This document shows, in pieces, positions 9,838 to 9,867 of a DNA stretch of 64,000 nucleotides. Numbering within the stretch: position 1 is the stretch's first letter; each line of letters opens with the position of its first letter. The position numbers and the translations under genes were made by a program. The DNA is from Escherichia coli (GTDB taxonomy: Bacteria; Pseudomonadota; Gammaproteobacteria; Enterobacterales; Enterobacteriaceae), in assembly GCF_003334815.1 (NCBI RefSeq), contig NZ_QOWO01000006.1, one strand, 5' to 3'. Below the pieces are notes generated by a model. It did not search any database and was not told the origin of the DNA. It was given only the letters and a program-made list of their open reading frames with translations.

Positions 9838-9867
9838 AAGCCGACTTTAAGAGTCGGCTTTTTTTTG
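9838..9867 (+). terminator. Rho-independent terminator/attenuator between upp and uraA
   Basis: AAAGCCGACT-ttaag-AGTCGGCTT followed by T8-9. Confidence 0.75.

Follow-up and report, generated by a model that had tools for sequence, protein, structure and literature searches.

An intrinsic terminator between upp and uraA of Escherichia coli, its conservation in Enterobacterales and its likeness to the pyrE attenuator

This report concerns a GC-rich hairpin followed by a U-tract in the upp-uraA intergenic region of Escherichia coli, analysed in a 64,000-nucleotide stretch of DNA (contig NZ_QOWO01000006.1) that we call the window. The results presented below indicate that this element is very probably an efficient but leaky intrinsic terminator inside the upp-uraA unit, which would give rise mostly to monocistronic upp mRNA, with a minority of transcripts extending into uraA and with Upp being made in excess of UraA. 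The terminator itself is of an ordinary kind and is already known, its 3′ end being present in a published map (PMC10687069). Judged against the accessible literature, in which we found nothing specific on a upp-uraA terminator or attenuator nor on regulated read-through at this site, three properties appear to be new: the conservation of its sequence throughout the order, its near-identity to the pyrE attenuator, and the existence of two discrete distances between the upp stop codon and the hairpin.

The hairpin and U-tract in the upp-uraA intergenic region

The features of the unit are listed below in window coordinates, each with its strand.

9125..9152, +: upp-uraA promoter (-35 TTGCCG, 16-nt spacer, -10 TATAAT), the best promoter-like match of the region (10/12), directly upstream of the initially transcribed sequence
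9158..9168, +: initially transcribed region GATTTTTTTTG of upp-uraA, by direct reading of the sequence
9195..9821, +: upp coding sequence, uracil phosphoribosyltransferase, 208 aa, stop codon TAA at 9819-9821, from the list of open reading frames and the E. coli genome annotation
9822..9839, +: A-rich 18-nt spacer between the upp stop codon and the GC stem, conserved in length (17-19 nt in core Enterobacteriaceae) and not in sequence
9837..9861, +: terminator hairpin, with 5′ arm GCCGACU (9840-9846), loop UUAAG (9847-9851) and 3′ arm AGUCGGC (9852-9858)
9859..9867, +: U8 tract (9859-9866) followed by G (9867); in vivo RNA 3′ ends at 9867-9869, peak at 9861-9871
9868..9906, +: uraA leader with Shine-Dalgarno sequence AGAGGA (9894-9899), too short for a promoter of its own and containing none
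9907..11196, +: uraA coding sequence, uracil:H+ symporter, 429 aa, ATG at 9907, from the list of open reading frames and the E. coli genome annotation

The intergenic region is 85 nt long and carries no feature in the RefSeq annotation. A preliminary description, made from the sequence alone, had proposed that a strong intrinsic terminator is located here, and this proposal is borne out by the GC hairpin, by the U8 tract and by a 3′ end mapped in vivo just past the latter. The coordinates given there, and the distances from the upp stop codon and to uraA (40 nt from T8 to the ATG), agree with a direct reading of the sequence. Two details need adjustment. The core of what had been called a 9-bp GC stem consists of 7 bp, five G-C and two A-U pairs, and can be extended to 10-11 pairs by pairing of AAA (9837-9839) with UUU (9859-9861) together with a U.G pair closing the loop; the T-run, given as T8-9, comprises exactly 8 residues.

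The in vivo evidence comes from the TRS study (Nat Commun 2023, PMC10687069), which reports for E. coli K-12 an RNA 3′ terminus at 2,620,196-2,620,206 (minus strand), with the dominant position at 2,620,200 in LB RNAtag-seq data and at 2,620,198 in a second dataset. The entry is assigned to upp, lists the hairpin sequence with "max U-tract 8", and belongs to the class "Alternative primary in TU", that is, 3′ ends located after a gene that is not the last one of its transcription unit; the adjusted p-values range from 1e-96 to 1e-116, or are 0 (PMC10687069). Its R values are 0.92 and 1.0, corresponding to a local read-through of 0-8%, where R = L/(L+D), or 1 minus local read-through, is a ratio of read starts and not a calibrated termination efficiency. 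Comparable R values are listed there for terminators at the ends of operons (0.93 for thrC and 0.99 for carB; PMC10687069). With the uraA ATG of the MG1655 annotation (2,620,160) set to window position 9907, the two dominant positions correspond to 9867 and 9869, which is 1-3 nt beyond U8. RNA release by intrinsic terminators occurs at the end of the U-tract.

Folding of the hairpin gave -15.1 kcal/mol (z = -5.5), none of 200 shuffled sequences being as stable, and -11.2 kcal/mol for the 7-bp core. The hairpin was the centroid structure in every context tried (9740 to 9925, with as much as 100 nt of upp or with the uraA leader included), and no competing fold or antiterminator was found in any of the contexts folded within 9740-9925. 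The site is also singular. The window contains a single occurrence of the pattern GCCGAC-N3-10-GTCGGCTTTT (0.00 expected), and this is the only place in the 64 kb at which a run of at least seven T residues directly follows a hairpin this stable (-14.0 kcal/mol); the next best run of this length is a T7 preceded by a hairpin of -12.7 kcal/mol. A generic terminator scan of the region returned 6 sites versus 7.3 expected, that is, no overall enrichment, and the present site was by far the strongest match.

Three further candidates for the nature of the element were set aside. A riboswitch or antiterminator-controlled leader is not supported, since folding revealed no alternative structure, the flanks are not conserved and Rfam gave no match. 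The search for a known RNA family yielded only terminator-like matches below threshold in Rfam, the best being STnc240 with 28 bits versus a gathering score of 55. A repeated element of the REP, ERIC or MITE type was rejected because, across 5426 E. coli genomes, the median number of places at which the sequence occurs is one, and the window contains it a single time.

The gene uraA is reported (Andersen et al. 1995) to form a bicistronic operon with upp, in which it comes second. Since a promoter scan of the region detected nothing promoter-like in the 40 nt that precede uraA, expression of uraA should depend on read-through. At the 5′ end of the unit, GATTTTTTTTG forms part of a reiterative-transcription promoter (PMC7039003) and is known for UTP (uridine triphosphate)-sensitive selection of the start site; GAT7-9G is found at this position in 64 of the 80 species described below. 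Only two T8-G runs exist in the 128 kb represented by both strands of the window, and both lie in the upp transcription unit: the reiterative-transcription site at its 5′ end (9158-9168) and the terminator U-tract at the 3′ end of upp (9859-9867).

Sequence conservation of the terminator

The 64-kb window represents E. coli chromosomal DNA: a 1.1-kb query spanning the junction matched all 5426 complete E. coli genomes, with an identity of at least 99% in 5251 of them, and the genes annotated there are upp and uraA. In 7 of the 5426, no match extended over 80% or more of the intergenic region. A natural disruption of the element is found in E. coli B1.H1.39 (NZ_CP146556.1), in which an IS200C copy is inserted inside the terminator U-tract, at a place equivalent to window 9864-9866, and uraA is thereby separated from upp by ~0.7 kb. 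The junction reads AGTCGGC-TTTTTT / gtgcac...IS200... / TTGAGTAAAG (coordinates 1780-2510 of the retrieved locus).

Conservation beyond E. coli was analysed with the upp loci of 80 Enterobacterales species; Xenorhabdus and Providencia (Morganellaceae) were also examined and have the element with uraA downstream. An element of the form A-GCCGAC-loop-GTCGG(C/T)-T8-G was present in all 82 species having upp followed by uraA; it was detected in 80/80 scanned loci, and uraA followed upp in each of the 79 loci that reach far enough. The 5′ arm is GCCGAC in 73 of the 80 species and GCCGGC, which forms a G.U pair, in 6; the remaining one has ACCGAC paired with GTCGGT, a compensatory A-U change. The 3′ arm GTCGGC is present in 77/80 species, T8G in 76/80, and the A directly before the stem in 99%. 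By comparison, the loop exists in 26 variants. Altogether, the 21 columns of the element are 99.1% conserved versus 65% for 107 four-fold degenerate sites of upp, at which the median identity to E. coli is 53%. CAGAGGA upstream of uraA is conserved in most species, and the other flanks of the element are not conserved.

Pairing in the stem was studied in an alignment of the 42 distinct variants, in which 97.3% of the stem cells are paired. Leaving aside the variable loop-closing pair, the changes consist of 8 G.U wobbles and 2 compensatory double changes. Because these changes preserve pairing only in the sense RNA, they argue for selection acting on the sense-strand RNA and not on a DNA palindrome; a DNA-level palindrome or protein operator was rejected on the same ground. 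Covariation was not accepted as sole proof of the structure: four of the eight stem pairs never change, which leaves too little variation, and counting pairs lends support to the structure without amounting to proof on its own.

The terminator of purN, present in the same loci, served as a control.

7155-7182, -: purN intrinsic terminator, GCGCCAGC-tctgcc-GCTGGCG-T5, with a "Primary" 3′ end in the TRS data (PMC10687069)

A hairpin is present after purN in most genera, and its stem sequences are unrelated between genera. In the outgroups Vibrio, Shewanella and Pasteurella, upp is not followed by uraA and unrelated terminator hairpins are found downstream of it; in Aeromonas, upp is likewise without uraA downstream and is followed by a GC hairpin that lacks a T-run. 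The conserved sequence thus seems to track the upp-uraA junction, a pattern that is confounded with phylogeny.

Two distances between the upp stop codon and the hairpin

The distance from the upp stop codon to GCCGAC was measured in the 80 species. A short class, 5-13 nt (mean 8.1, standard deviation 1.6), comprises 32 species from genera that include Yersinia, Serratia, Pantoea, Dickeya, Hafnia, Edwardsiella, Cedecea and Buttiauxella. A long class, 17-19 nt (standard deviation 0.5), comprises 40 species, among them those of Escherichia, Citrobacter, Enterobacter and Kosakonia, and the distinct spacers of this class are only 52-61% identical to one another. In the 8 other species the distance is 94-183 nt owing to an inserted repeat, with the hairpin being intact in all of them. 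On the other side, between the U-tract and uraA, the same species have anywhere from 23 to 499 nt. Because length is constrained only on the side of the upp stop codon, these measurements suggest that it matters where the terminating ribosome stands with respect to the hairpin. A ribosome at a stop codon covers ~10 nt beyond it; in the short class, as at pyrE, this would be enough to reach into the 5′ arm, and in E. coli it would not.

Several peculiarities of the spacers were observed. An element of ~150 nt is common to three Yersinia species, in which it separates the upp stop codon from the hairpin (3128-3280 of the retrieved loci), and two Pantoea species have related inserts in the upp-uraA spacer and retain the conserved hairpin. 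The hairpin is also retained in Brenneria, whose 533-nt spacer (3128-3660 of the retrieved locus) contains tandem units of ~95 nt that each end in a terminator-like AAAACGCCTTTGGCGTTTTTTT. In many long-spacer species of the core Enterobacteriaceae, the last 7-8 nt of the spacer, directly before GCCGAC, are an A-tract such as ATAAAGAA or AAAAAGA that is complementary to U8. Pairing of this tract could lengthen the helix to ~14 bp, which would then start ~10-11 nt past the stop codon, at the edge of the footprint of a terminating ribosome. E. coli has only AAA before GCCGAC.

Likeness to the pyrE and pyrBI attenuators

The closest counterpart of the element is the pyrE attenuator. The rph-pyrE junction of MG1655 consists of UGA (the rph+ stop codon), UUUUUAA, GGCGACU, GAUG, AGUCGCC, U8 and G, followed by 31 nt up to the pyrE ATG. 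Its stem, GGCGACU/AGUCGCC, differs from that of upp, GCCGACU/AGUCGGC, by one flipped G-C pair; both have 7 bp, a loop of 4-5 nt and exactly U8 followed by G, the core energy of the pyrE hairpin being -11.7 versus -11.2 kcal/mol at upp, and in both cases the hairpin separates an upstream open reading frame from a pyrimidine gene that follows in the same operon. The TRS entry for pyrE belongs to the same class as that for upp, and its 3′ end likewise falls on the G after U8 (3,815,800); the R values are 0.98 and 1.0 (PMC10687069). Conservation at the sequence level across Enterobacterales is another shared property: GGCGACU/AGUCGCC is kept in Salmonella, Buttiauxella and Serratia and the core GCGAC/GUCGC in Pectobacterium and Tatumella, and in all five of these further genera the hairpin begins 5-8 nt past the rph stop codon. 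This places it at a distance like that in the 32 short-class species, in which the upp stop codon is ~8 nt away.

The two sites differ in other respects. At pyrE of E. coli the upstream stop codon is 7 nt from the hairpin, at upp 18 nt; U4-6 lies between stop codon and hairpin at pyrE, whereas the upp spacer has no U-run; and the downstream gene encodes a biosynthetic enzyme at pyrE and a transporter at upp. According to the passages of PMC2784333 that cite Bonekamp 1984 and Jensen 1993, the pyrE attenuator operates by UTP-modulated coupling of translation and transcription, for which the rph stop codon must be near the attenuator loop. UTP-modulated read-through is a feature of pyrE and a hypothesis for upp-uraA.

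The motif common to both, CGACY-N3-7-RGTCG followed by T6, was found only at the upp-uraA and pyrE types of junction in the 549 kb examined. None of 84 other distinct predicted terminators contains CGACY/RGTCG, and 7 of those 84 have a run of at least eight T residues.

The attenuator of pyrBI, located in the pyrL leader, resembles the element in architecture (A-GCCCCUC-AAUC-GAGGGGC-U8-G, also a 7-bp stem followed by U8-G), and reiterative transcription at the promoter of this operon provides a precedent for two layers of UTP sensing. Differences are that the pyrL reading frame runs through the terminator, that a U-rich pause region precedes it, and that the stem sequence is unrelated save for the closing GCC/GGC. 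Its R value is 1 in the TRS data (PMC10687069). We observed that the pyrBI, pyrE and upp-uraA terminators of E. coli have a common architecture of A, 7-bp stem, 4-5-nt loop, U8 and G. An ordinary operon-end terminator such as that of purN shares with the element a GC-rich hairpin, a T-run and a mapped in vivo 3′ end, but ends an operon instead of dividing one and has stems that are unrelated across genera. Leaky internal terminators between co-regulated genes lower expression of the distal gene, which is a general principle of operons. Such internal partial terminators are usually neither conserved in sequence across an order nor fixed in their distance from the upstream stop codon.

Other 3′ ends in the uraA region

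The TRS data contain a "Primary" 3′ end of uraA at 2,618,834 (~11233 in the window), 38 nt past the stop codon, and an "Internal" 3′ end within uraA at 2,619,683 (~10384, +) (PMC10687069). The "Primary" end follows a strong hairpin, CCGGGCAGUGUUGCUGCCCGG, of -21.8 kcal/mol without a U-tract (window ~11200-11240, +).

Discussion

The reading that we consider well supported is that of an intrinsic terminator that is efficient but leaky. After initiation at the upp promoter, RNA polymerase would transcribe upp, and the GCCGACU/AGUCGGC hairpin would form in the exit channel at a time when the active site holds the weak rU:dA hybrid of U8. Most complexes would then be released at U8, giving a monocistronic upp mRNA with a protective 3′ hairpin, and the minority of polymerases that read through would produce the only transcripts carrying uraA. 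In this way the terminator would act as an attenuator within the operon, keeping the membrane permease UraA well below the soluble enzyme Upp although both are under a single UTP-sensitive promoter. We infer that the 3′ end is made by termination and not by trimming, and the fraction of read-through is probably what selection preserves. As the hairpin starts 18 nt after the stop codon, outside the ~10 nt covered by a ribosome, termination in E. coli is suggested to be largely constitutive.

Several observations weigh against this reading. R is a local ratio of read starts and not a termination efficiency, and a 3′ end adjacent to a hairpin could also result from exonucleolytic trimming of longer transcripts. 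Mapping of 3′ ends, by which the preliminary description proposed to check the terminator, places a TRS terminus at U8, while the curated Term-seq data of Adams et al. 2021 (PMC7815308) contain no 3′ end for upp, uraA or this hairpin, a weak counterargument as that list is thresholded; the SMRT-Cappable-seq supplements contain nothing for the site either. Moreover, tuning of expression alone hardly explains why loop and stability vary (-10 to -15 kcal/mol) yet four pairs never change, not even to G.U, and it leaves the constrained distance between stop codon and hairpin unexplained. The invariant pairs and the fixed spacing, seen by comparison of sequences, suggest something more than a passive terminator.

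One possibility would extend the leaky terminator rather than replace it, namely that the element is a conditional attenuator of the pyrE/pyrBI type in E. coli too, at which read-through increases when UTP is low or when the ribosome finishing upp closely follows the polymerase. There would then be two UTP-sensing layers as in pyrBI, reiterative transcription at the promoter and attenuation before uraA. We regard this as tentative and, for E. coli, rather doubtful. It is favored by the near-identical stem and core energy of pyrE, by the U8-G architecture shared with pyrBI, and by the restriction of the motif to two types of junction. The hairpin with its U-run is indeed located directly upstream of a gene of pyrimidine metabolism in the same operon, the pyrE attenuator is likewise conserved in sequence and in its position near the rph stop codon in the five further genera, and the geometry of 32 species is like that of pyrE, with constraint on the distance from stop codon to hairpin and not on that from hairpin to uraA. 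Expression data provide hints: uraA, and not upp, appears in a top-25 table of azidothymidine (AZT)-induced, LexA- and SspA-dependent genes, and the AZT/LexA/SspA effects on pyrBI and pyrE map to their attenuators (PMC11228462); in a Salmonella study uraA changes at least 4-fold alongside codB, carAB and pyrEIB, with upp unlisted. These hints come without values for upp, however, and the accessible literature reports no such regulation of upp-uraA. Furthermore, translation of upp ends within ~10 nt of the hairpin in the 32 species and not in E. coli (18 nt), and in all core Enterobacteriaceae the hairpin lies 17-19 nt past the stop codon, beyond the cover of a terminating ribosome. The spacer is A-rich and lacks a U-rich pause stretch as in pyrE and pyrBI, short-spacer species also have no conserved U-run, and in the 8 species with inserts of 94-183 nt the hairpin has remained intact though it is uncoupled from translation of upp. 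For the lineages with a short spacer we rate the probability of regulated read-through higher than for E. coli.

The remaining alternatives concern the origin of the 3′ end, the binding of a factor and the source of uraA transcripts. Stable 3′ hairpins protect mRNAs, and mapping of 3′ ends alone cannot tell termination from trimming; the polymerase might therefore read through, with 3′ exonucleases trimming the RNA back to a hairpin that mainly stabilises upp mRNA. The perfect U8 after the stem (T8-G in 76/80 species) defines intrinsic termination and is not needed by a stability hairpin, the 3′ end is at or just beyond the end of the U-tract and not at the foot of the stem, and the proven attenuator of pyrE shows exactly the same signature, so that processing is very unlikely to be the explanation. 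We give equally little credit to the idea that the element either is bound in a sequence-specific manner by a factor acting in trans (Hfq, ProQ or a similar protein, or a regulator dedicated to it) or serves as the 3′ module of a regulatory small RNA that originates from the 3′ end of upp. Conservation of the primary sequence beyond what pairing requires, with its four invariant pairs, would fit such a role, and the (ARN)5-like run AAGAAUAAAAAUAAU directly before the hairpin and U-tail of E. coli seems to resemble an Hfq-binding layout. Against it, that A-rich run is not conserved outside core Enterobacteriaceae, the loop, where recognition usually takes place, exists in 26 variants, Rfam gave no family above threshold (see above), and the literature search found no link of uraA or upp to Hfq-bound small RNAs. 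The least credible alternative is a separate uraA promoter overlapping the end of upp, TTGGTA-16-AATAAT (9808-9835, +), whose transcripts would begin in the 5′ arm and hence escape the terminator. It is a 9/12 promoter-like match ending 4 nt before the GC stem, but matches of this kind are at chance level (5 sites found versus 4.8 expected), the -10-like hexamer averages 3.5/6 in 40 related species and reaches 5/6 in Escherichia only, and TTGGTA is explained by conserved Phe-Gly-Thr codons. We have rejected it as an unconserved and probably fortuitous match.

Taken across the order, the comparison allows a wider proposal, which we put forward with the reserve expressed above for E. coli: the upp-uraA terminator may be a third UTP-sensitive, translation-coupled pyrimidine attenuator of enterobacteria besides those of pyrBI and pyrE, ancestral in Enterobacterales and existing in two evolutionary states. 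One state would be sensitive to the ribosome, with the stop codon ~8 nt from the hairpin (Yersinia, Serratia, Pantoea, Dickeya, Providencia and others); the other would be insulated from it by 17-19 nt (Escherichia and Salmonella-like core Enterobacteriaceae).

Significance

As a plain terminator the element matters little: it would account for a level of the permease below that of the soluble enzyme encoded upstream, and it corrects the textbook view of upp-uraA as a simple two-gene transcript. Its order-wide conservation, its fixed distance from the stop codon and its pyrE counterpart together make it a candidate for an overlooked regulatory site in a well-studied regulon; conservation, spacing and likeness to pyrE render the regulatory hypothesis specific and do not establish it. 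Conservation of a terminator at the level of its sequence, set against the normal turnover of terminators, can be used to flag regulatory terminators in genome scans. The distances of 8 nt and 18 nt constitute a natural pair of geometries bearing on how near a ribosome must be to suppress intrinsic termination. If the terminator were indeed a third attenuator, uracil uptake would respond to UTP at a second level, in addition to that of reiterative transcription at the promoter.

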